From contig JABHQW010000008.1 in NCBI GenBank assembly GCA_018696595.1, forward strand, positions 256,001 through 320,000: 64,000 nucleotides of DNA. Direction: 5' to 3'. The position numbers were made by a program, and so were the translations under genes. This DNA comes from Candidatus Woesearchaeota archaeon (GTDB lineage: Archaea; Nanobdellota; Nanobdellia; Woesearchaeales; GW2011-AR9). How positions within the stretch are numbered: the stretch's first letter is position 1; the number at the start of each line of letters is the position of its first letter. Below are positions 22,622 to 36,594 of the stretch, piece after piece. The notes beneath the pieces were generated by a model. That model was not told the origin of the DNA and made no database searches. It saw nothing but the letters and a program-made list of their open reading frames with translations.

Positions 22622-24514
22622 CTATTTAACCCCATACTTATTCATAATCTTTTTATAAGTTTTGAAATCTTTTGATTTTGAAAATGCGTTAATTTCTTTT
22701 TTAGGCAATTTTCCAAGTAAACCATCAATTTTTCTTAATGCCGGTTTAAGATCTTTATCCACATCAACATTAGATTTAACTTTAACCCTAATACGTTTAA
22801 TCTCTTTAACAATTCTCGTTTTGATTTTAACAACTTGTACAATTTTTGTTTTTATTTTAATAATTGGTAATTTCTCATCAATAATTAAATGCAACTTGTG
22901 TAGTTCATCTCTTAACTTATTAGCATCATTAACTCTTTTAATTTTTTCTTTAACAACTTTATTTAAGTTTTTAAGTTGTTTATCCCTATCAGATAATTTT
23001 TCTGAAATGGCCTTATAATTAGCTTTAGTCTTCTCTTGTTTATCCTCTAGCTTTATTTCTTCCTCTCTTAATTTTCGAAGAATGTTCTCGTTATTAGCTG
23101 TTTTATTTGATATGTTAGATTTTCTTTTACGAAGAGTTTTAGCCTTTTCTAATAATTTCAATCTATTAGCAGATAACTCTTTCTTTTTAGTTTCCATTTC
23201 ATTATCGATTTCAGATTTCCTTTTCTCTAATTGTTTGGAAGCGCTTCCTTTTTTACGATTAAGAACAACAATTTCTTTATCTAAATCAGCAATCTTTAAT
23301 CCTGCCTGTTTGTTAGCCCGTGCTTGTTTAAGTTTAAGCCTTTTCTTTTCATTTTCAAGATTATTTTTTAATTGTACTTTTTTTCTCGTCAAATCGACAC
23401 TAATTTTTTGTTGTTTAATTTTTTCTAAAGCAATTTCTTTTTCTACATTTTTGATTTTCTTCCAAGTGTTAGATTTAACTTCATCTTCTAATCGGGCAAT
23501 ATAATTATCTAAACGATCATAAACTGGTTTCTTTAAGAGTGATTGTTTAATTTTTCTTTCTAATTGGATTTTTTGGACTATTTTTCTTAATAACTGTTCT
23601 TCTTCAACTAGACTTTGATGTTTTCTTTTTTCAGAAGAAATTTGATTGTTAGTAGCAGTTAATGATTTCTTATTTTTATTTAACTTAGTCATAGCAAAGT
23701 TTTGTTTTTGGTTAAGAGCTTTAATTCTTTTACCCACTTCTTCTTTTTTCAAAGCTTGTTTTCGATAAGCTTCTTGTGTTCTCGTTAAATCTTTGGAAAT
23801 ATCTTCAATTTGTTTATTTAAATCTAAATGTTTCTTAACAATTTTCTGTTGTTTTTCATTTTGAACTTTACTTTCCTTTCTTACTGATAATAATAATTGT
23901 CTTTTTACAGCTGCTAATGAAGTTTCAATATTATCAAGTAAAGTTTGGTGTTCTTTTTTCTCTTTTAAAACTTTAATTTGTAACTGCTCAATATTTCTCT
24001 TCTTAGCTAAAAATTCTTTTTGTGTAGAAAAAGAGTTATCTTGGAACGAACGTAATTGTCTTTTTTTAAGCAACATTTCTTTCTCTATGTTTTTAAGACT
24101 AGTTTTAGCTTTAGATTTTTCAGCTTTAAAACTATCAATCACTGCTGGCATATCTCCAGAAACCGCTTTAACCGCAGTTAACATCTTTTCAATTTTGTTT
24201 AATTTTATTTTTCCTGTTTTTAATTCATTCTCTTTTTCTTGAATGTCAAGCAAAATCATTTTCGTTTTTGCTTCATTAATACTTTTCCTTTGTAATAATT
24301 CTTTTTCCAAATCATTCATTTCTCTTTTAATTTGGTTTAAAGCTTGGCTATCTCTATTCAGTAAACTTAAAGAGGCTGTTCTTCTTCTTTCCCATGACTT
24401 TAATTTATTACTGAAGCTTTTCTTTTCTTTTTCTAAAACTTTAATTTTCCTTCCAGATTCAGAAAGAATTTTGTTAATCTCCTTCTCCAAATTGAGCAAT
24501 AATTCTGGCATCAC
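22622..24514 (-). CDS. Long Lys/Glu-rich coiled-coil protein with small C-terminal domain; start uncertain
   Basis: ~560 aa of heptads; C-terminus LLGKLPKKEINAFSKSKDFKTYKKIMNKYGVK; GTG/ATG start lies inside the TrkA frame. Confidence 0.75.
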   Translation of the reverse strand: MMPELLLNLEKEINKILSESGRKIKVLEKEKKSFSNKLKSWERRRTASLSLLNRDSQALNQIKREMNDLEKELLQRKSINEAKTKMILLDIQEKENELKTGKIKLNKIEKMLTAVKAVSGDMPAVIDSFKAEKSKAKTSLKNIEKEMLLKKRQLRSFQDNSFSTQKEFLAKKRNIEQLQIKVLKEKKEHQTLLDNIETSLAAVKRQLLLSVRKESKVQNEKQQKIVKKHLDLNKQIEDISKDLTRTQEAYRKQALKKEEVGKRIKALNQKQNFAMTKLNKNKKSLTATNNQISSEKRKHQSLVEEEQLLRKIVQKIQLERKIKQSLLKKPVYDRLDNYIARLEDEVKSNTWKKIKNVEKEIALEKIKQQKISVDLTRKKVQLKNNLENEKKRLKLKQARANKQAGLKIADLDKEIVVLNRKKGSASKQLEKRKSEIDNEMETKKKELSANRLKLLEKAKTLRKRKSNISNKTANNENILRKLREEEIKLEDKQEKTKANYKAISEKLSDRDKQLKNLNKVVKEKIKRVNDANKLRDELHKLHLIIDEKLPIIKIKTKIVQVVKIKTRIVKEIKRIRVKVKSNVDVDKDLKPALRKIDGLLGKLPKKEINAFSKSKDFKTYKKIMNKYGVK

Positions 24515-24911
24515 CGTAAGTTCTTAAAATTCTTTTGATTGCACTAGCATTACTTCCTGCTGCAGAAACGAACGTGCTAACTCCTAATTTTGCAAATAAT
24601 TCTTCATTTTTTGGTTTTCTTACTAAAGGAACAACTTTTTGTACTTTCTCTGATTTTCCAATTTGTGAAATCATTAAGTTAGTAGTATCATCACCAGTTG
24701 CAACCACTAAAGCATCAACTTTATCAATTTCTGCTTCTTTTAAAATAGAAATATCTGTACCATCACCATGAATGACTAAAGCGTTAGTTTTTTGCGCTAA
24801 CTCTTTAGCACGGATTTCATCTTTTTCAACAAGAGTAACTTCCATTTCCTTTTCAAATAGTTTTGCTAGAGTTAGGCCAGTTTCCCCGCCACCAACAATA
24901 ATAATTTTCAT
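24474..24911 (-). CDS. TrkA-N (RCK NAD-binding) domain protein, truncated before TrkA-C
   Basis: IIIVGGGETG, VTLVEKD, IHGDGT, ATGDDTTN; ends at FGEGD*. Confidence 0.8.
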   Translation of the reverse strand: MKIIIVGGGETGLTLAKLFEKEMEVTLVEKDEIRAKELAQKTNALVIHGDGTDISILKEAEIDKVDALVVATGDDTTNLMISQIGKSEKVQKVVPLVRKPKNEELFAKLGVSTFVSAAGSNASAIKRILRTYGDARIIAQFGEGD

Positions 24912-25001
24912 TTTCTTAACCTCTTTTTTAATATGATTTTTTAATAATGTTATATAATCTAAATACTTACCTATATAAAAATCTTGCTTTTCTTTAACTA
25001 C

Positions 25002-25742
25002 TTAATGTCCCACATGTAAATTTAATTTAAGACTCAATTTCTGATAAACAAACCCGGCAACACTTTTTAAATTCTCAATATCTTCACCATTATACTCCAA
25101 TAACAAATCCAAATACTCTCGGTCGCCAGAAGCGTGGAACGCTTTCCATAAGTCAACAGGATTGCCATAAAGATGAGCTGGCCTCCCTAATCCCAGTCTC
25201 TTCTCAACTTCTTTCAACCCTCCAACTAATCCTAAATTAACACAAAGTTGTTTCAAGTCTAGATGAGCAACTTTAACAACAATACCCATTTCCTTTCTTA
25301 ACTTCGGTAAATCAAACGCACCACCATTAAACGTAACAATTAATTTGTACTTCGATAACTCTTTTTCAATTTCTCCTTTTGACAAATTAACTCCTTTGAC
25401 AAAATAATTACTATTGTAATAATCAGAAATGCCTACTACGATAACTTTCCCCACAGAATCAACTTCAATATCCAAGTAACCTGTTTCTTCTTTAAAATAG
25501 TCATACAATCTCCAAGTCTCAACAGCAGCTAATTTTCCAATAAAATAATTACTCTCCTCATTAACTAAAGCTTCTTTAGCCTCTTTAATTTTCCGATTAT
25601 AATATTCTTTGCTTCGCACAGAAATTCCTTTAATCTTATCAACACGAAGAAAATCATTCCAATCTTTAATTCCTGAGTTCCAAATATTTTTCTCCTTACC
25701 GGAACCAACTTTCTCCAAAAAAATAAACGATTTTCTGATCAT
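25002..25742 (-). CDS. RNase H-like (YprB/DEDD) exonuclease family protein
   Basis: YLDIE, TFNGGAFDLP, HLDL, GGLKEVEKRLG, YNGED. Confidence 0.85.
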   Translation of the reverse strand: MIRKSFIFLEKVGSGKEKNIWNSGIKDWNDFLRVDKIKGISVRSKEYYNRKIKEAKEALVNEESNYFIGKLAAVETWRLYDYFKEETGYLDIEVDSVGKVIVVGISDYYNSNYFVKGVNLSKGEIEKELSKYKLIVTFNGGAFDLPKLRKEMGIVVKVAHLDLKQLCVNLGLVGGLKEVEKRLGLGRPAHLYGNPVDLWKAFHASGDREYLDLLLEYNGEDIENLKSVAGFVYQKLSLKLNLHVGH

Positions 25743-25797
25743 AACTATTTCAAGAATAAACTAATTTAAATGTTTATGTTTTTCTACCTCGCAGGGA

Positions 25798-25814
25798 CAG
25801 GAAATTTTTATAAA
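25798..25814 (+). promoter_or_regulatory. BRE/TATA-like promoter for candidate ncRNA
   Basis: CAGGAAA followed by TTTTTATAAA, ~25 nt before the first hairpin. Confidence 0.55.
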
Positions 25815-25837
25815 CTCCTCGACATTCTACTTATTTC

Positions 25838-26026
25838 CTACTGTTCACGGGAGAATTGATTTCACTTGTTGATGTCTTCGGATTGATGCTTGTGTTTGAT
25901 GCTTCGGACGTGTTCAGTTAAATCGTTTCAGTTGTTTGCGGGAGAATTGATTTCGCTTGTTGACGTCTTCGGATTGATACTTGTGTTTGAAACTTCGGAC
26001 GTGAACTGCTGAGAATTTCTTTTTTT
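25838..26026 (+). ncRNA. Candidate ncRNA of two tandem UUCG-capped rod hairpins
   Basis: 65-nt direct repeats 25848-25912 and 25939-26003 (5 differences), c(UUCG)g loops, pairing-compatible changes, oligo-T at 26016-26026. Confidence 0.65.
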
Positions 26027-26112
26027 CATTCAATGATAAGTTGAATAATAACAAATTTTATATACTTCTCCGTAACGTGATACTCTATTAATCCATGGGG
26101 GTGGAAATTAAA

Positions 26113-26877
26113 ATGGTAAATTTATTATTGTTTGGGTTATTGAATCCAATTGTTATTGCCGTAATCTTAATCGTTCTGGCAAGTTTGAAAGTTGTTAAAG
26201 AATACGAACGGGGAGTTCGATTTACATTAGGAAAATATACGGGGATGATGAAACCAGGATTAAGAATGGTTATTCCAGTAATTCAAAGTTGGGAAAGAGT
26301 TGATTTGAGAGTGAAAGCTGTTGACGTTCCTGATCAAGATTGTATTACTAAAGACAATGTTTCTGTAAGGGTTAATGCAGTTTTATACTTTAAAGTAGCC
26401 GAAGCAGAGAAAGCAATCATCGGAGTAGAAAATTACTTTTATGCAACATCTCAGTTATCACAAACTACTATGCGAGATATTGTGGGGGAAGTTACTTTGG
26501 ATGAACTTTTAAGAGAAAGAGATGAAATCTCAAAGAAGATAAAAATGATTGTTGACAAAGCAACTGATCCTTGGGGAATTAAAGTTGAGTCAGTAGATTT
26601 GAAACATGTAGAACTTCCAGATAACATGAAAAGAACTATGGCTAAGGAAGCCGAATCTGAGCGAGAAAAGCGAGCAGTAATCATTAAAGCAGAGGGAGAA
26701 GTTATGGCTGCTAATAATATGTCTAAAGCCGCTACAATGCTTGCAAAGGCGCCTGGTGCTTTACATCTGAGAACTTTACAGAGTATTAACGACATGAGTT
26801 CAGATCAAAGTAACACGATTGTCTTTGCTGTACCTTTAGAAATCTTGAAATCATTCGAAGGGTTCGCTAAGAAATAA
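26113..26877 (+). CDS. SPFH/Band-7 (stomatin/slipin) family protein
   Basis: EYERGVRFTLG, ITKDNVSVRVNAV, AESERE, ALHLRTLQ; start at 26113 after GGGGTGG. Confidence 0.93.
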   Translation: MVNLLLFGLLNPIVIAVILIVLASLKVVKEYERGVRFTLGKYTGMMKPGLRMVIPVIQSWERVDLRVKAVDVPDQDCITKDNVSVRVNAVLYFKVAEAEKAIIGVENYFYATSQLSQTTMRDIVGEVTLDELLRERDEISKKIKMIVDKATDPWGIKVESVDLKHVELPDNMKRTMAKEAESEREKRAVIIKAEGEVMAANNMSKAATMLAKAPGALHLRTLQSINDMSSDQSNTIVFAVPLEILKSFEGFAKK

Positions 26878-26920
26878 TTTTTTTTATTTTATTTTTTCTT
26901 TTTTATTTTTTTAAGAAAGT
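26878..26920. terminator. T-rich tract between convergent genes
   Basis: TTTTTTTATTTATTTTTTCTTTTTTATTTTTTT. Confidence 0.5.
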
Positions 26921-28012
26921 TCAAAATTCTAGGAGTATTTTTTTATTCTTCAAATCAATCCCTTTGATCTTCTTAACTTTTTTCAACTCGCTTTCAATCT
27001 CTTTCCAATCTTTACCTTCTTTTCTTGCAGATTTAACAAAATCAATAATCTTTTGTAAGGGTTGGTAGTTCTCATAAACAGTCTCTCCCTTTTGGGTATT
27101 TAATACAATCTTATCTTCTTGTTTCTTAATCGATTTTTTCTGGTTAGAAATTATTCCTTTAGCCGAAATTATTCTTTGTTCATAGGGAGATATAATCTCA
27201 AACGGATTAAGAATATTGATTGCTTCATTATACGTTTCAGTTTTCTTTACTACTTTCTCCTCATTAGTTAATTCAAAAGGGGTTATCTGATTTTCATAAA
27301 TAAATCCAGAAGGTTTCTCAATAACTTTCAATAATGTTTTAATCCCTTTAATAATTTCTTTAATCTCTTTTTCAGTAACATCATTTTGTAATTTGTCTTT
27401 ATCAACATCAGCTAATCTACAAATCTCTTCTGCATATAATCCACCAAATCCCACTTCTGTAGCAATTGAAGTAGCCAAATTCTTTTTATCACTCTTTTTC
27501 AAAACAGTAGTTAACTCTTTCTCATTCAACTTTTTCCAATCAATTCCTGGCGTAGGAAAAACATACTTCTCTTTCACTCTGATATTACGATCTTTCCATT
27601 TCTTTTGTTCAAGGGCAGCAATAATCATATCTTTAGAGTCAGTCAAAATCAAATTTCCACGAGAGAACAATTCAATAATTAGATAATACTTCTCCTTTTT
27701 TTCAATTTCAAAAACAATAATTCTTTCAGCGCCTTTTTGTTCAATCTTTCTAATAGAAGCGTTATCCAAATATTTCCTTAATTGCATACAGAATGAAGAT
27801 GGTTTTAGGGGGGTATCTTTCCGCGAAGTCAAACAAAGAAATTTTCCAGGAACAATTTTCAATAATTGTTTGCCTTCGCCTTTAGCATGTAACTGAAATA
27901 ATAGCTCCATCTTTTCCTGGTGGTAAACTTGCGATATTCTTCCATCTACTAAGAACTGTAATTCGTTAATAATCGCTGCTAGTTCAAGTGAAGCTAATCC
28001 TTTTTTGTTCAT
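26921..28012 (-). CDS. NFACT/Rqc2 (FbpA) N-terminal domain protein, lacks NFACT-R
   Basis: PSSFCMQLRKYL, ERII, IIELFSRGNLILTD, GFGGLYAEEI (HhH); only 363 aa. Confidence 0.85.
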   Translation of the reverse strand: MNKKGLASLELAAIINELQFLVDGRISQVYHQEKMELLFQLHAKGEGKQLLKIVPGKFLCLTSRKDTPLKPSSFCMQLRKYLDNASIRKIEQKGAERIIVFEIEKKEKYYLIIELFSRGNLILTDSKDMIIAALEQKKWKDRNIRVKEKYVFPTPGIDWKKLNEKELTTVLKKSDKKNLATSIATEVGFGGLYAEEICRLADVDKDKLQNDVTEKEIKEIIKGIKTLLKVIEKPSGFIYENQITPFELTNEEKVVKKTETYNEAINILNPFEIISPYEQRIISAKGIISNQKKSIKKQEDKIVLNTQKGETVYENYQPLQKIIDFVKSARKEGKDWKEIESELKKVKKIKGIDLKNKKILLEF

Positions 28013-28243: not shown

Positions 28244-30865
28244 CTATTCAATCTCAAATCGAAGTATAGCAGCAATGCCGCCTAAATCTCTAAGTTGTGC
28301 CCCTTCTCTAGTTTCTGTAGAAATAATCCTAACTTCTGCACCACCTGCTTGTGCCTTCTCTTCCAAATCAAAAATCTTATTTTCAGGAATACTCTCTGAA
28401 ATTAGTAAAATGTCAACTGCGGCCATTTCTAAAGCTTTCAATGTTTCTTTCTCCCCATAAGTTGCTTTTTTGGGCGTATCTCTAAGAGTGCCTAAGAATT
28501 GTTGCATAATTTTTTTCTCGTGAGCAATTTCTTCTTCTGATAAAAGGTCTTCAGATTTTTCTAATAATTCTTGCAATCCAAAATCTCCGGTATACGATAA
28601 ATCTTTAGTACCAATAATTTTTTTCTTTACATCTCCAGTAATATAATCTTTATTCATAAAATCGTTAATCGTAACACCGGGGCCACCAATAATAATGCCT
28701 TTCAAATCTTTTCCAAGAGGTAAGAATTGATCTTTCATATATTCTGCAATTTTTTTAAAATGATCTTTAGCAGCACCTTCTCTTAGACGAGCGAATCTTT
28801 GAGCAGAATTATGAACTATTAATCCATTTGCTATGAAGTTTTGATTGCCAACAGAAATGTCAATCATTTCAGTTTCTTCATTTCTTTTTTCAATATTAGC
28901 AATCTTAACCGGCAAAATGGGGCTATTATAAACTTCTTCTAATTGTGTATATAATTTCTTATCTTTAACACAAGACAAGATAGAACTCTTAAATGTTTGT
29001 TTACTCATCATTCTCTCATTTCTAAAGAAGTTTGTTACTTTTGGAAATTGGTTTGTGTTGTAACCAGCGTTTTCAATTATCTTTCTGATTTTCGAACCAG
29101 AAGCAATAATTTGTCTGACATTACTCTTATTTGATCTTAAATCAATACTCTTTTCTAATTTTTGTGATTTTTTATTACAAGTAAATCCAATTTGTTCTTT
29201 AAATAATTCTAAAGATTTCTTTTCTGTAATGTCAATTGTAAAGCGAGGATTATCACTTAGTGGATTTCTTCTATTGTCATATTCATGTAAAGAAGAAATG
29301 ATTCCAAATCTTAACAAAGCCATTTGTATTTGTTGTGCCAATATTTTGTTATTTATTCCAAATGCAGCCTGTTTTCTTTGAGAAACATAACCTTCTGCAT
29401 CAAAAAATCCTTTCACAAAACTTGCAAGAATTTTATTTGGAGAATTTAATATTTTTTCGGGAATTAAAGAATCTCTTGCTTTTTTTATTTCTGGAAATTC
29501 TGTTTGAATTAATCTAACTAATGGTCTACTTGTAAATCTTAACTGGTGGTAATTCTTACTTTCTCTAAATTTATAACTACAATTCAGATCAAAGTGTTGA
29601 TCAAACAATTCTTTATAATGTAAAGCAAGATCTTTACTTTGTTCAAAGAAAGTAATTCTATCTTTTTCTATACAACCATCACCCATTAGATAACCTAAAA
29701 ATTGAGCGAGATTTGCTTCAAGAAGAACCGGCAATTTGATGTTTTTGTATAGTTCAGGAGTAGTATAGTTATTTAGGAAATCATAAAAATCAATTTCTAA
29801 GGCCGCACAAAGCTTTTGCAAAGGAATTCTTCCAATATTTCTTTTTCCTTTTTCGTAAGTTGATATTGCTGTTTGGGTAAGCCCAGTAAGTTTTGCAACA
29901 TCTCTCTGAAATAAACTTTTTTCTTCTCGTTTTCTCTTGATTTGGTTTTGTCCTTCTTTATTTATTTTGAAAGAATTATAATATTGAACTGCTTTGATGG
30001 TTTGAAGTTTACCTTCTACTTCTATTTTTTCAGGCATAATTAGAAAATCTCCTTCTTGAAGTTCTTCAGCGGCTTTTTCTTTGATTCCATTCTCAGTTTT
30101 CACAAAGAAAATATGGTCTTTAGAAGATTCTACTTGTAGTCTTGGATATTTTGTTGTGATCTTGTAAACTTCATGTTTTTTGGCATTCCATTTATCTGTA
30201 ATTGGTGAATCTTTAATTGAGTGACTTTCCATAACCATACTCTTGAGCACAATTGGGTTATGGGAATTTTCAATTTTTAAGATGTCTCCCTGAGTGGATT
30301 GAATTAATGTTCCTTTCATACAACATTGTCCACCTGCTTTAGTTTTTCCAGGAACTTCCGAATGTGTTTTTTGCATTGGGACAATAGATTTTCCTTTCAA
30401 CAGAGCAATGGTTGCATCCCTTCTATCCATAACAACAAGACCATAAACTTCTTTGTTAACCATCATTTCTTCTAATAAATCAGTTACAAAGTTTTTATCA
30501 CAACGATAAATACGTGTGTTTAATTGGATTGGTGGTTCAATACTCCAAACTCGAACATCTTGTTTACCTTCTCCTGCGGCAACGTTTCCAGAAAAAACCG
30601 CAAAACCATTTTCTGGTGTGTTACCAATAGTTCTTAAATGTTGAATCATTTTTTCCAAAGCATTCTGGACATTCTTTCTAGTAGCAGCAGATTTAATGTT
30701 TGAAGCGGTTCCTTGCTCTTCTGCTAGATGTTGAATAATTTTTGTCATATCATAACCAGAAGGGATGTAAACTGTAACAAACTCTGTATGTGGAGCCTTA
30801 TGGCTACGTAACTCACTTACTATTTTTTTCAGTTTCAGTTTCTCTTGTGCGGTTATCGCTGCCAT
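28244..30865 (-). CDS. prf1: Peptide chain release factor aRF1 containing an intein
   Basis: TASNIKS, YRCD, GKTKAGGQ|intein|SAQRFARLRE, GGAEVRIISTETREGAQL; spliced length 367 aa. Confidence 0.95.
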   Translation of the reverse strand: MAAITAQEKLKLKKIVSELRSHKAPHTEFVTVYIPSGYDMTKIIQHLAEEQGTASNIKSAATRKNVQNALEKMIQHLRTIGNTPENGFAVFSGNVAAGEGKQDVRVWSIEPPIQLNTRIYRCDKNFVTDLLEEMMVNKEVYGLVVMDRRDATIALLKGKSIVPMQKTHSEVPGKTKAGGQCCMKGTLIQSTQGDILKIENSHNPIVLKSMVMESHSIKDSPITDKWNAKKHEVYKITTKYPRLQVESSKDHIFFVKTENGIKEKAAEELQEGDFLIMPEKIEVEGKLQTIKAVQYYNSFKINKEGQNQIKRKREEKSLFQRDVAKLTGLTQTAISTYEKGKRNIGRIPLQKLCAALEIDFYDFLNNYTTPELYKNIKLPVLLEANLAQFLGYLMGDGCIEKDRITFFEQSKDLALHYKELFDQHFDLNCSYKFRESKNYHQLRFTSRPLVRLIQTEFPEIKKARDSLIPEKILNSPNKILASFVKGFFDAEGYVSQRKQAAFGINNKILAQQIQMALLRFGIISSLHEYDNRRNPLSDNPRFTIDITEKKSLELFKEQIGFTCNKKSQKLEKSIDLRSNKSNVRQIIASGSKIRKIIENAGYNTNQFPKVTNFFRNERMMSKQTFKSSILSCVKDKKLYTQLEEVYNSPILPVKIANIEKRNEETEMIDISVGNQNFIANGLIVHNSAQRFARLREGAAKDHFKKIAEYMKDQFLPLGKDLKGIIIGGPGVTINDFMNKDYITGDVKKKIIGTKDLSYTGDFGLQELLEKSEDLLSEEEIAHEKKIMQQFLGTLRDTPKKATYGEKETLKALEMAAVDILLISESIPENKIFDLEEKAQAGGAEVRIISTETREGAQLRDLGGIAAILRFEIE
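28808..30325 (-). mobile_element. Intein (506 aa) with HTH insert and LAGLIDADG homing endonuclease
   Basis: Block A CCMKGT, block B SKDH, FLGYLMGDG and FVKGFFDAEG, block F MIDISV..QNFIANG, terminal HN followed by Ser+1. Confidence 0.93.
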
Positions 30866-34524: not shown

Positions 34525-35199
34525 TTACTTTTTAATAATGATCATACAGTGATCTTTCTCCAGCGGGTCAAGAGTTTTGTAATCAATAACCGTAAATATT
34601 TTGTCAAGCGCTGTTCGAATCTTAACAAAAATGTCTTCTGGTCTTCTTTTAACGTCAATACTTCTGGCTTTTACTGCTAACAAACCATAACCGCCTTTTT
34701 TCAAATACATGTTACAATTTCTTACAAAAATGTCCATTTGATTCTTCTGAGCAATATCTTGGTAAACAATATCTGCTTGACAAACTCTTTCAATATATTC
34801 TTCTGGGTGGTTTGCGTCTGCTAAAACTGGAATTAAGTTTTTTCTTTGTTCTGCCAAGAAAACAAAATCTCTCATTACTCTCGGAGCAGGATCAACTCCA
34901 AAGATTAATCCTTCTTCTCCAACAATATCAGAAACAAAACTAGGTGTGTAACCATGGGAACTTCCTAAATATAAAACCACATCATTCTTTCTGATTCCAA
35001 TGTTAGTGCAACCTTTCATAATCATTGCTGCTAACTTACTTCTTTGTGGATCAAACTCTCTGTACTCATCTTTTCCATCTCTTGAAGTTCTTTCTTCGAA
35101 ATGTGTTTTTCTAGGAAGAATAGATTTAGTGAAGATTCTTTTACCTCGAGCTTCCTGATAAATTTCAAATAGTTTATGTTCTTTTATTCTTCTACTCAT
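34525..35199 (-). CDS. flpA: Fibrillarin-like rRNA/tRNA 2'-O-methyltransferase
   Basis: YREFDPQRSKLAA, VLYLGSSHGYTPSFVSD, YQDIAQ, KARSID; start MSRRIK at 35199. Confidence 0.95.
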   Translation of the reverse strand: MSRRIKEHKLFEIYQEARGKRIFTKSILPRKTHFEERTSRDGKDEYREFDPQRSKLAAMIMKGCTNIGIRKNDVVLYLGSSHGYTPSFVSDIVGEEGLIFGVDPAPRVMRDFVFLAEQRKNLIPVLADANHPEEYIERVCQADIVYQDIAQKNQMDIFVRNCNMYLKKGGYGLLAVKARSIDVKRRPEDIFVKIRTALDKIFTVIDYKTLDPLEKDHCMIIIKK

Positions 35200-35707
35200 T
35201 TTTATTATAATGCTCCTCAACTTCTAAATAGCCCCAACCAATTGTTTGTTCCATTGTAAACCCAAGCTTTTCAACATATTCTTTAACTTCTTCTGCGGTT
35301 GGTGCTTCAATTTCTAAAAAGTGTGGGATCTTTTTCCAATTATCAATTTCAAACCGAACTTTTCCAATCGTATAAGATTCTCTGTGTTTTTTACCTTCAT
35401 GAATTTTTTTCAATCCGCTTCTTTCTAATATTTCAATAGTATCTGCAAAATTGCTTGTATTAACTTCTATCTCTTCTCTCGACTTGAATACTGAACCTCT
35501 ATTTGGGCCTTTAAAACAAAGTTCAACAGTTTCTCCTACCTTTCTTACTCGGATAAAACTGTCTTTCTGATATAATCTCATGTCTGGATGATCGAAAGCA
35601 AGTGCATGTATTTCTCCATCAAAAACTTTCTCTGCCCCTAAATCTAATAGTTTCTTTCTGATCTCTTCAAGATCAATGTCCAAGATTTTCACTTCAATTT
35701 CTTTCAT
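35192..35707 (-). CDS. CYTH-domain protein (class IV adenylate cyclase/triphosphate tunnel family)
   Basis: EIEVK, IRVRK, FKGP, REEIE, KHRESY, FLEIE. Confidence 0.9.
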   Translation of the reverse strand: MKEIEVKILDIDLEEIRKKLLDLGAEKVFDGEIHALAFDHPDMRLYQKDSFIRVRKVGETVELCFKGPNRGSVFKSREEIEVNTSNFADTIEILERSGLKKIHEGKKHRESYTIGKVRFEIDNWKKIPHFLEIEAPTAEEVKEYVEKLGFTMEQTIGWGYLEVEEHYNKNE

Positions 35708-35709
35708 TT

Positions 35710-36594
35710 TTACAACTTAACATCTAACTTTTTTTCTAATTCTTTACGATATTCTTTAGCTTTAAACTCACCTTTAAAGAAGTCTAAGCGAGTACATAAC
35801 GATAATTTGTCAGCAAGCATTCTAGCAGCTCTACCTTTTTTTCTTCGTTCAGATCTTTGAATTAATGGGTGGTTTATGATTACTCCATATTTGGGACTTC
35901 GAGAACCTGTTTTAATATGTCTGAATAAAGCTTTCTCTGCTCCCAATAATTGAATTGTGGATGAGGGTAAAAGAGCTAAACGTTTTAAACTTCGGCCAAG
36001 TTCAATCAATTTAGCGCCAATAGTTGCGCCCGCTAATTCTAATAAGTTTGGACAAAACTTTTTCATTACTCCTTCCAAATAAGTTTCATGTTTCTTACGT
36101 AATCCTTGTAATTCACGAATCTGTTTAGCTAATATTAACATTTCATTAACATCTTCTTTTTTTAGGTCTGCACCCATAGTTTCTTTCAACTTTAATTCTT
36201 TCATCAAATCTTCCTTACTCTCACTAATAACCATCTCAACAAACTTTTCTTGGTTGTTCATAACATTTTCAAACTCTGGTAAATATAAAGAGAACCACTC
36301 ACGAAGCCTTTTAATTAGTATATTATTTACTTTATCTAATTCGTTAACGTTAGCAATTGCTTGGATAATTAACATATCTTCTGATACAGAAGCTTTGATT
36401 CCTTTCTTAGTCAATGCTAAATTTTTCTCATAAAACTGAGTATAGTTTTCTCTATCTTTGAATTTTGACAGGACTTCATTTACTTTATTTTTAGGCAATT
36501 GTTCAAGTTTCTCACTAGATTTAGCTTTTTCAATGCTCTTACTTTTAACATCGTAAACAAACTTCCCTAATATATTAGTAAAGGAATATCTCAT
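35710..36594 (-). CDS. nop5: Nop5/Nop56 C/D RNP protein
   Basis: IIQAIANVNELDK..N..RLREW, CPNL, IQLLGAEKALF, PKYG. Confidence 0.92.
   Translation of the reverse strand: MRYSFTNILGKFVYDVKSKSIEKAKSSEKLEQLPKNKVNEVLSKFKDRENYTQFYEKNLALTKKGIKASVSEDMLIIQAIANVNELDKVNNILIKRLREWFSLYLPEFENVMNNQEKFVEMVISESKEDLMKELKLKETMGADLKKEDVNEMLILAKQIRELQGLRKKHETYLEGVMKKFCPNLLELAGATIGAKLIELGRSLKRLALLPSSTIQLLGAEKALFRHIKTGSRSPKYGVIINHPLIQRSERRKKGRAARMLADKLSLCTRLDFFKGEFKAKEYRKELEKKLDVKL

Follow-up and report, generated by a model that had tools for sequence, protein, structure and literature searches.

Related RNAs and the locus

DPANN archaea have tiny genomes with few recognisable regulators and, to our knowledge, almost nothing is known about their non-coding RNAs. 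The described systems closest to the RNA that we report here are the archaeal guide RNAs, the Kt-7-type k-turn (discussed with the internal loop, below), and the RNA sponges of bacteria. Archaeal H/ACA sRNAs are encoded by stand-alone genes and consist of one to three tandem hairpin units of ~70–90 nt, in which a conserved internal loop separates a closing stem from an upper stem. Box C/D sRNAs have a terminal box C (RUGAUGA) and box D (CUGA), which together form a k-turn, and guides of 10–12 nt upstream of D or D'. The bacterial sponges CsrB and RsmZ are stand-alone sRNAs with a variable number of hairpin modules, and one short motif is presented in the hairpin loops.

Positions 25801–26026 of the window (the whole 64,000-nt stretch of DNA that was analysed) probably hold a stand-alone gene for a structured non-coding RNA from an uncatalogued Woesearchaeota-type (DPANN) family, and a modular protein-binding RNA is our best guess as to its nature. 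The family is new, but its general kind is familiar, namely orphan structured small RNAs that are made of repeated hairpin modules. Each module is ~75–95 nt long and has a 10-bp closing stem (P1), an invariant internal loop, a variable rod, and an apical stem with a C(UUCG)G tetraloop. The functional module would be the single hairpin, which genomes carry one to three times in tandem; the window has two (Table 1).

The layout of these arrays is that of the H/ACA sRNAs, but no ACA or ANA box follows the lower stem: none of 46 units has ACA within 0–3 nt past P1, and where P1' contains ACA-like letters, these pair and covary. Also, the loop does not differ between units or genomes, whereas the loops of H/ACA sRNAs vary by target; the upper stem has no k-turn or k-loop, and no H/ACA family in Rfam matches. 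We rejected an H/ACA sRNA on these grounds. As in the C'/D' motif of box C/D sRNAs, UUGA on the 5' side of a helix and (U)GAUG(C) on its 3' side can form G.A, A.G, and U.U pairs. However, the 3-nt bulge, the terminal C/D pair, and the 10–12-nt guides are all missing, the D'/C'-like letters flank a rod that pairs with itself, and no C/D family in Rfam matches the element, so a canonical C/D sRNA was rejected as well. (The Rfam C/D matches in the region fall outside the element and are at chance level.) The likeness to CsrB and RsmZ is that a variable number of modules shares one short motif (GGA occurs two or three times per rod unit) and that the RNA is dispensable and patchily distributed. 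On the other hand, the rod RNA is archaeal, its motif lies in the internal loop of a long rod rather than in hairpin loops, and sequestration is purely an analogy; we know of no CsrA homologue in archaea.

The gene lies between a minus-strand gene (25002–25742) and a plus-strand gene, in an intergenic gap of 352–370 nt, which is long for a genome of 1.19 Mb. The downstream open reading frame opens at 26095; translation probably begins at 26113, after a Shine-Dalgarno sequence (GGGGGUGG). Within the gap is a direct repeat of 71 nt (25842–25912 and 25933–26003; 90% identical, period 91).

Table 1. Features of the rod RNA gene, in positions of the window
Feature	Position	Strand	Evidence
BRE/TATA-like promoter element: A-rich BRE-like stretch from 25801, then TTTATAAA (25807–25814)	25801–25814	+	Sequence
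Unit 1, rod hairpin	25840–25918	+	CM score 78–82 bits, MFE fold, stem covariation
Unit 1, P1	25840–25849 with 25909–25918	+	
Unit 1, invariant 5' loop strand GGAGAAUUGA	25850–25859	+	
Unit 1, variable rod (apical C(UUCG)G at 25876–25881)	25860–25901	+	
Unit 1, invariant 3' loop strand CUUCGGA	25902–25908	+	
Linker, unit 1 to unit 2	25919–25930	+	Not conserved between homologous arrays
Unit 2, rod hairpin	25931–26009	+	CM score 75–77 bits; P1 shows paired changes relative to unit 1
Unit 2, P1	25931–25940 with 26000–26009	+	
Unit 2, 5' loop strand GGAGAAUUGA	25941–25950	+	
Unit 2, apical C(UUCG)G	25967–25972	+	
Unit 2, 3' loop strand CUUCGGA	25993–25999	+	
Oligo-T tract TTTCTTTTTTT, probable archaeal terminator	26016–26026	+	Sequence; T-rich equivalents in most homologous arrays

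The initial annotation, which was made from the sequence of the window, described two copies with a period of 91, and the five differences that it counted are indeed all inside a 65-nt core. Four of the five substitutions keep or improve pairing, as claimed: A25864>G changes A-U to G.U, G25888>A and G25900>A each change U.G to U-A, and U25899>A changes U.U to U-A. The fifth (U25873>C) falls in a U.U mismatch. The minimum free energy (MFE) fold of unit 1 reproduces the rod as it was drawn, with essentially the same register in the loop. The recurrence of UUGA was also confirmed, with two copies per unit on the 5' strand that lie opposite GAUG or UGAU on the 3' strand.

The proposed BRE/TATA element and T-run are both present in the window, and equivalents were found at most homologous loci. 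Specifically, most of these loci have a TATA-like octamer 17–24 nt 5' of the first unit (identified by a motif scan and by eye), and the first 15 nt past the last unit are T-rich in most arrays (typically 0.5–0.8 T, in a genome with 32% G+C). The units themselves have a G+C content of 0.39–0.49, versus 0.32 genome-wide. From these conserved promoter and terminator signals we infer that the RNA gene is transcribed; the start of transcription is predicted to lie at about 25836–25840, which would give a plus-strand RNA of ~185 nt. An A-rich-plus-TATA consensus occurs twice in this region (25803–25820 and 26053–26070, 83% identical, repeat D3), once before the RNA gene and once before the SPFH gene that follows it. 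The two copies give a local view of the organism's promoter consensus.

The RNA does not belong to the families that one would check first. Rfam 15 has nothing on the element at E ≤ 10 (searching 25000–27000 of the window) and nothing at the gathering score across the whole window. Similarly, there was nothing at E ≤ 1 for six diverse homologous loci. ARAGORN finds no tRNA at the element. The genome's SRP RNA, RNase P RNA, and 5S rRNA were found above cut-offs elsewhere, which agrees with the initial statement that the element is none of these, nor a tRNA or a canonical C/D sRNA. Judging the consensus by eye, we also rejected the BHB splice motif, the cores of the hammerhead and hairpin ribozymes, and the sarcin-ricin (loop E) motif. 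Neither Rfam 15 nor our literature searches turned up an RNA of this kind that had been described from Woesearchaeota or DPANN archaea.

Homologues and covarying structure

A BLAST search with the element against 60 related genomes gave clear matches in seven of them, with identities from 97% down to 70%. These homologues share a common plan: a closing stem with genome-specific letters, then GGAGAAUUGA, then a variable hairpin that is capped by C(UUCG)G, then GA-N-R followed by CUUCGGA, and then the other half of the closing stem. We built covariance models (CMs) from 11 units (R1, from alignment A1) and from 25 units (R2, from alignment A3). Of 113 genomes from the window's own archaeal family, 20 had units according to R1, and these represent 16 of the family's 58 genera. 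Every positive genome has a single locus, with one, two, or three tandem units. With R2, the RNA was found in one further family of the order (of 136 sampled), and no units were detected among 150 genomes sampled from the whole class.

Candidatus Woesearchaeota MAGs (bins from Saanich Inlet and Crystal Geyser) and some 30 units from metagenomes were added by scanning GTDB genomes and metagenome contigs for the exact pattern and then scoring the matches with a CM. The same pattern had no match on viral contigs. The 34 distinct arrays comprise 19 single units, 12 pairs, and three triplets. The clade that carries the RNA is one group of tiny marine and groundwater archaea of the Woesearchaeota type (DPANN).

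Weak CM matches (27–31 bits) in bacterial contigs (L064, L065, L103, L108, L123, L133, and L137) were left out; they are probably chance matches that were selected by the pattern, or else an unrelated or different element. All of these contigs other than L123 look bacterial and carry near-identical stretches that have GGAGAAUUGA ... CUUCGGA by pattern, score 27–31 bits with R2, and have a middle that looks unrelated.

The distribution of the RNA is patchy. Only ~18% of the genomes in the family have it, and it is absent from some nearly complete genomes (for example G012, which is 98% complete in 6 contigs), so it must be dispensable. Within the window's genome, a search for extra copies returned only a chance match of 30 nt in a coding-like stretch (C2:43179). 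A dispersed repeat is ruled out by the finding of one locus per genome.

The array also varies in form. A search for sequencing runs that contain positions 24500–27500 of the window gave 20 DNA runs, from marine or seawater samples, and no RNA run. In four of the DNA runs, contigs break at the repeat, and relatives carry other forms of the array, including a form with an insertion. This insertion consists of ~57 extra nt after the GGAG of the invariant loop, and it is seen in unit 2 of genome G001 (L031:1590–1727) and in genome G075 (L044:1440–1582), with P1 and the rest of the loop kept. The inserts could apparently fold into two hairpins, and the rod would then become a four-way junction. 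The same ~57-nt insertion is found in marine contigs that align on unit 1 of the window.

To quantify pairing, we used an alignment of 25 units that was made with MAFFT only and was not fitted to the structure (A3). In this alignment, the 10 bp of P1, the 3 bp of the GAA/UUC helix in the loop, and the 3 bp of the apical stem are paired in 95.7% of 399 cells. As a control, we slid the 3' partner by 1–3 columns, and pairing fell to 30–42%. Double changes are present in 12 of the 16 pairs (9 of 10 in P1 and 2 of 3 in the apical stem), and none of 500 shuffles reached the observed covariation score. RNAalifold predicts the same helices.

The pairs in P1 also indicate which molecule folds. Across 44 distinct units, 82.5% of P1 pairs are Watson-Crick, 13% are G.U, and 0.9% are A.C, and therefore the fold is that of the plus-strand RNA and not of DNA or of the other strand. 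Tandem U.U mismatches occur inside P1 in six of the 44 units, including unit 1 of the window.

By folding energy, the window's own copies are no different from shuffled sequences (z = +0.53 for all 206 nt, -0.6 for one unit and -1.3 for the other; not significant), so the window alone cannot separate a functional RNA from a recent duplication. When we folded 12 units, 10 had z from -1.9 to -5.6, and the two exceptions were those of the window. The same rod is the MFE fold in nine of the 10 low-z units (the unit from G082 folds differently). The middle part is always one hairpin with small symmetric loops that are rich in U.U and G.A.

The claim that the window encodes a stand-alone structured RNA with two tandem UUCG-capped rods is thus supported by homologues with a conserved and covarying structure. 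The CM search of related genomes, which had been suggested as a check, argues against the alternative outcome of a neutral recent duplication.

The invariant internal loop

The 5' strand of the loop, GGAGAAUUGA, reads G-(G/A)-A-G-A-A-U-U-G-A, or G(G/A)AGAAUUGA, and it is nearly invariant. The 3' strand reads (GA)N-R-CUUCGGA, and all 44 units have a purine before CUUCGGA. For the units from metagenomes and GTDB, this invariance is partly built in because the search pattern required these letters; the set found by CM is less biased and shows the invariance as well.

In the most likely stacking, as modelled, a 3x3 purine loop (GGA facing GGA) would be followed by the 3-bp GAA/UUC helix, a bulged C, and then U.R, U.N, G.A, and A.G. 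Both RNAalifold and RNAfold chose this register for GAA/UUC, and in unit 2 of G073 the helix is GAG/CUU, with one compensatory change. The non-canonical pairs are less fixed. Under the rod, 11 of 44 units have A-U in place of A.G and six of 44 have G.U in place of G.A, with the 5' strand unchanged. Sheared G.A pairs are therefore not obligatory, which leaves the binding of L7Ae or Lsm as only a lead; the 5' strand seems to be constrained for its own sake. The initial annotation had emphasised repeated tandem G.A pairs, and of this claim the recurrence of UUGA stands but the pairs themselves are not a fixed feature.

The same letters also fit the pattern of a Kt-7-like k-turn, as k-turns of this type are defined in PMC8191799. 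The C helix would correspond to P1 and the bulge to GRA, with G.A, A.G, and A.G as the pairs 1b:1n to 3b:3n. As in a Kt-7-type k-turn, a Watson-Crick stem is followed by three purines and G-A-A, and on the opposite strand G-G-A comes directly before the helix, which gives a bulge, tandem G:A and A:G pairs, and A:G at 3b:3n. However, this reading excludes the GAA/UUC helix and leaves the would-be NC helix unpaired, and the folding programs prefer the 3x3 purine loop with GAA/UUC. The pair next to the loop (-1b:-1n in the k-turn reading) also differs. It is G:C in 29 of 44 units, A:U in 15 of 44, and never C:G, whereas in k-turns -1b:-1n is usually C:G, and G:C is reported to be unfavourable to ion-induced folding or to block it (PMC8191799). 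A kink at this position is a reading of the letters.

Possible functions and the gene neighbourhood

The family itself is established here, as are its covarying stems, the fold on the plus strand, its own promoter-like and terminator-like signals, the single locus per genome, and the lack of a fixed gene neighbour. For the function, we favour binding to protein. We propose that the invariant loop on its rigid rod would be a docking platform for a specific RNA-binding protein, and we regard the chances of this as about even. The proposal is made because a rigid rod with an invariant and largely non-Watson-Crick loop is the usual design of a docking site. Because there are one to three equivalent modules, multivalent binding is suggested: an array would offer one to three equivalent sites and could be a component of an RNP or a decoy that titrates its protein.

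A bolder version is that the rod module is the RNA half of a lineage-specific RNP, that GGAGAAUUGA and CUUCGGA are read by a dedicated protein or by the 16S tail, and that arrays of one to three modules are dosage-tunable decoys that set the level of free factor. We offer this tentatively and consider it doubtful. If it is true, then the decoy arrays would be an archaeal counterpart of the protein-sponge RNAs of bacteria, in organisms with minimal regulatory repertoires. Either way, this is a well-supported new family of structured RNA whose modular architecture looks built to present a fixed binding surface. The organisms are uncultured, and the covariance model, the ~45 distinct units, and clear sequence features to mutate make the search for a partner testable with recombinant proteins.

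L7Ae would be one candidate partner, since a Kt-7-like k-turn is a possible reading of the loop's base, but we think that it is unlikely. The corresponding alternative to our proposal is an L7Ae-bound k-turn RNA akin to the archaeal guide RNPs, i.e., a non-canonical C/D-like or H/ACA-like sRNA. In this layout, P1 would be the C helix, G(G/A)A would be the three-nucleotide bulge, the next G-A would pair with the G-A of CUUCGGA as in Kt-7, and UUGA...GAUG would act as a D'/C'-like motif. The resemblance of UUGA and (U)GAUG(C) to boxes D' and C' speaks for it, as does the likeness of arrays of one to three hairpins to archaeal H/ACA sRNAs. In addition, the genome encodes L7Ae, Nop5, and fibrillarin. 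Several points speak against it: there is no ACA box past P1 in any of the 46 units, the variable part is self-paired and so offers no guide-like variable single strands, the loop does not differ between units, and no C/D or H/ACA family in Rfam matches. Also, UUGA/GAUG lacks the 3-nt bulge and its G.A pairs are replaceable (at the frequencies given above), the NC helix of the putative basal k-turn would be non-Watson-Crick, almost every unit is predicted to form the competing GAA/UUC helix, for which there is one compensatory change, and -1b:-1n is G:C or A:U and never C:G. In our view, the guide-RNP alternative is improbable.

The genes for fibrillarin and Nop5 adjoin each other in the window (34531–36345, or G000:C3:290531–292345, minus strand), ~8.5 kb downstream of the RNA, and therefore the machinery for C/D methylation is present. 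The L7Ae gene is at G000:C4:40502–40777, and a second protein that resembles L7Ae/L30e is encoded at C5:90822–91067.

A second alternative is that the RNA acts in trans by base pairing, with GGAGAAUUGA(U) as the seed. For example, it might act as a Shine-Dalgarno mimic that binds the 3' tail of 16S rRNA, in which CUCC would pair with GGAG and, on the other side of a small loop, AUCA with UGAU. The 3' end of the genome's 16S is GGAUCACCUCCU, nearby genes use Shine-Dalgarno sequences, and the 5' strand does not change even in units where the strand that it pairs with intramolecularly is UUGG instead of GAUG, which would be expected if there is a second partner. Nevertheless, the complementarity is short, interrupted, and post hoc; the 5' strand is embedded in a stable rod; and the 3' strand (CUUCGGA) is equally invariant without having such a target. 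Similarity or complementarity to the genome's own 16S and 23S rRNA is at chance level only: the sole 10-nt match to rRNA has E = 0.25 and includes non-conserved letters. The genome has six complements of the 10-mer versus ~2.4 expected, and the one that we inspected (C2:43198) lies in a coding-like stretch. No copy of an anti-SD sRNA was found in the genome. Overall, we consider a base-pairing RNA to be decidedly unlikely.

Less likely still is an RNA that senses a ligand or is catalytic, in the form of a tandem aptamer or of a small ribozyme that cuts the array into units by self-cleavage. An invariant internal loop between covarying stems is typical of aptamers and of ribozyme cores. Some classes of riboswitches have tandem modules, as this RNA does. 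Yet no expression platform is present. The array stops at a T-run, and the next gene carries its own promoter box and ribosome-binding site: in the window, the SPFH gene has its own TATA-like box and its own Shine-Dalgarno sequence. A leader or riboswitch was rejected because the downstream genes are mutually unrelated (SPFH, Na/H exchanger, GatE, PAC2, NYN, VTT, or DUF1003) or there is none. Furthermore, the structure is a simple rod without a multi-helix junction or a pseudoknot, Rfam has no ribozyme or riboswitch match, and the hammerhead-like letters (UGA, helix, GAA) lack essential positions of the core. This makes sensing or catalysis very improbable.

Finally, a sequence without function as RNA (a neutral tandem duplication, a REP/MITE-like mobile repeat, a protein-binding array at the DNA level, or a pair of small ORFs) could account for the 90% identity and shuffle-like energies of the window's copies, for a 21-codon frame that opens at UUG of each unit, and for a gene location that differs between genera and an array form that varies among co-occurring strains, but it is the least credible reading and is largely refuted already, by conservation over 16 genera, with compensatory changes and with G.U pairs confined to a single strand, by the single locus per genome with no dispersal and none on viral contigs, and by the spacing of the two invariant motifs (52, 44, 48, 62, 57, and 64 nt), which falls in all three frames and, together with frames that end early in homologues, excludes coding.

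The initial annotation had pointed to the divergently transcribed RNase H-like exonuclease as a possible partner, and this did not hold up: the exonuclease is present in 81 of 113 genomes of the family, usually on another contig than the RNA, and it is absent from two RNA-positive genomes. Across 22 loci, we found no recurrent neighbour gene beyond the exonuclease/SPFH synteny of close relatives. In G128, the divergent exonuclease and SPFH genes directly adjoin each other, the RNA is missing from between them (L153, G128:C99:6890–7590), and the RNA unit is on another contig. Given this arrangement, the RNA gene must have moved or been inserted during the family's history.

Two other features of the window are worth recording. 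A 630-aa open reading frame on the minus strand (22622–24514) has no match in Pfam and overlaps the end of a TrkA-N gene (24474–24911). On the other side of the RNA, the minus-strand gene for aRF1 (28244–30865), which has eRF1 domains 1–3, is split by an intein with LAGLIDADG and HTH domains, according to Pfam.
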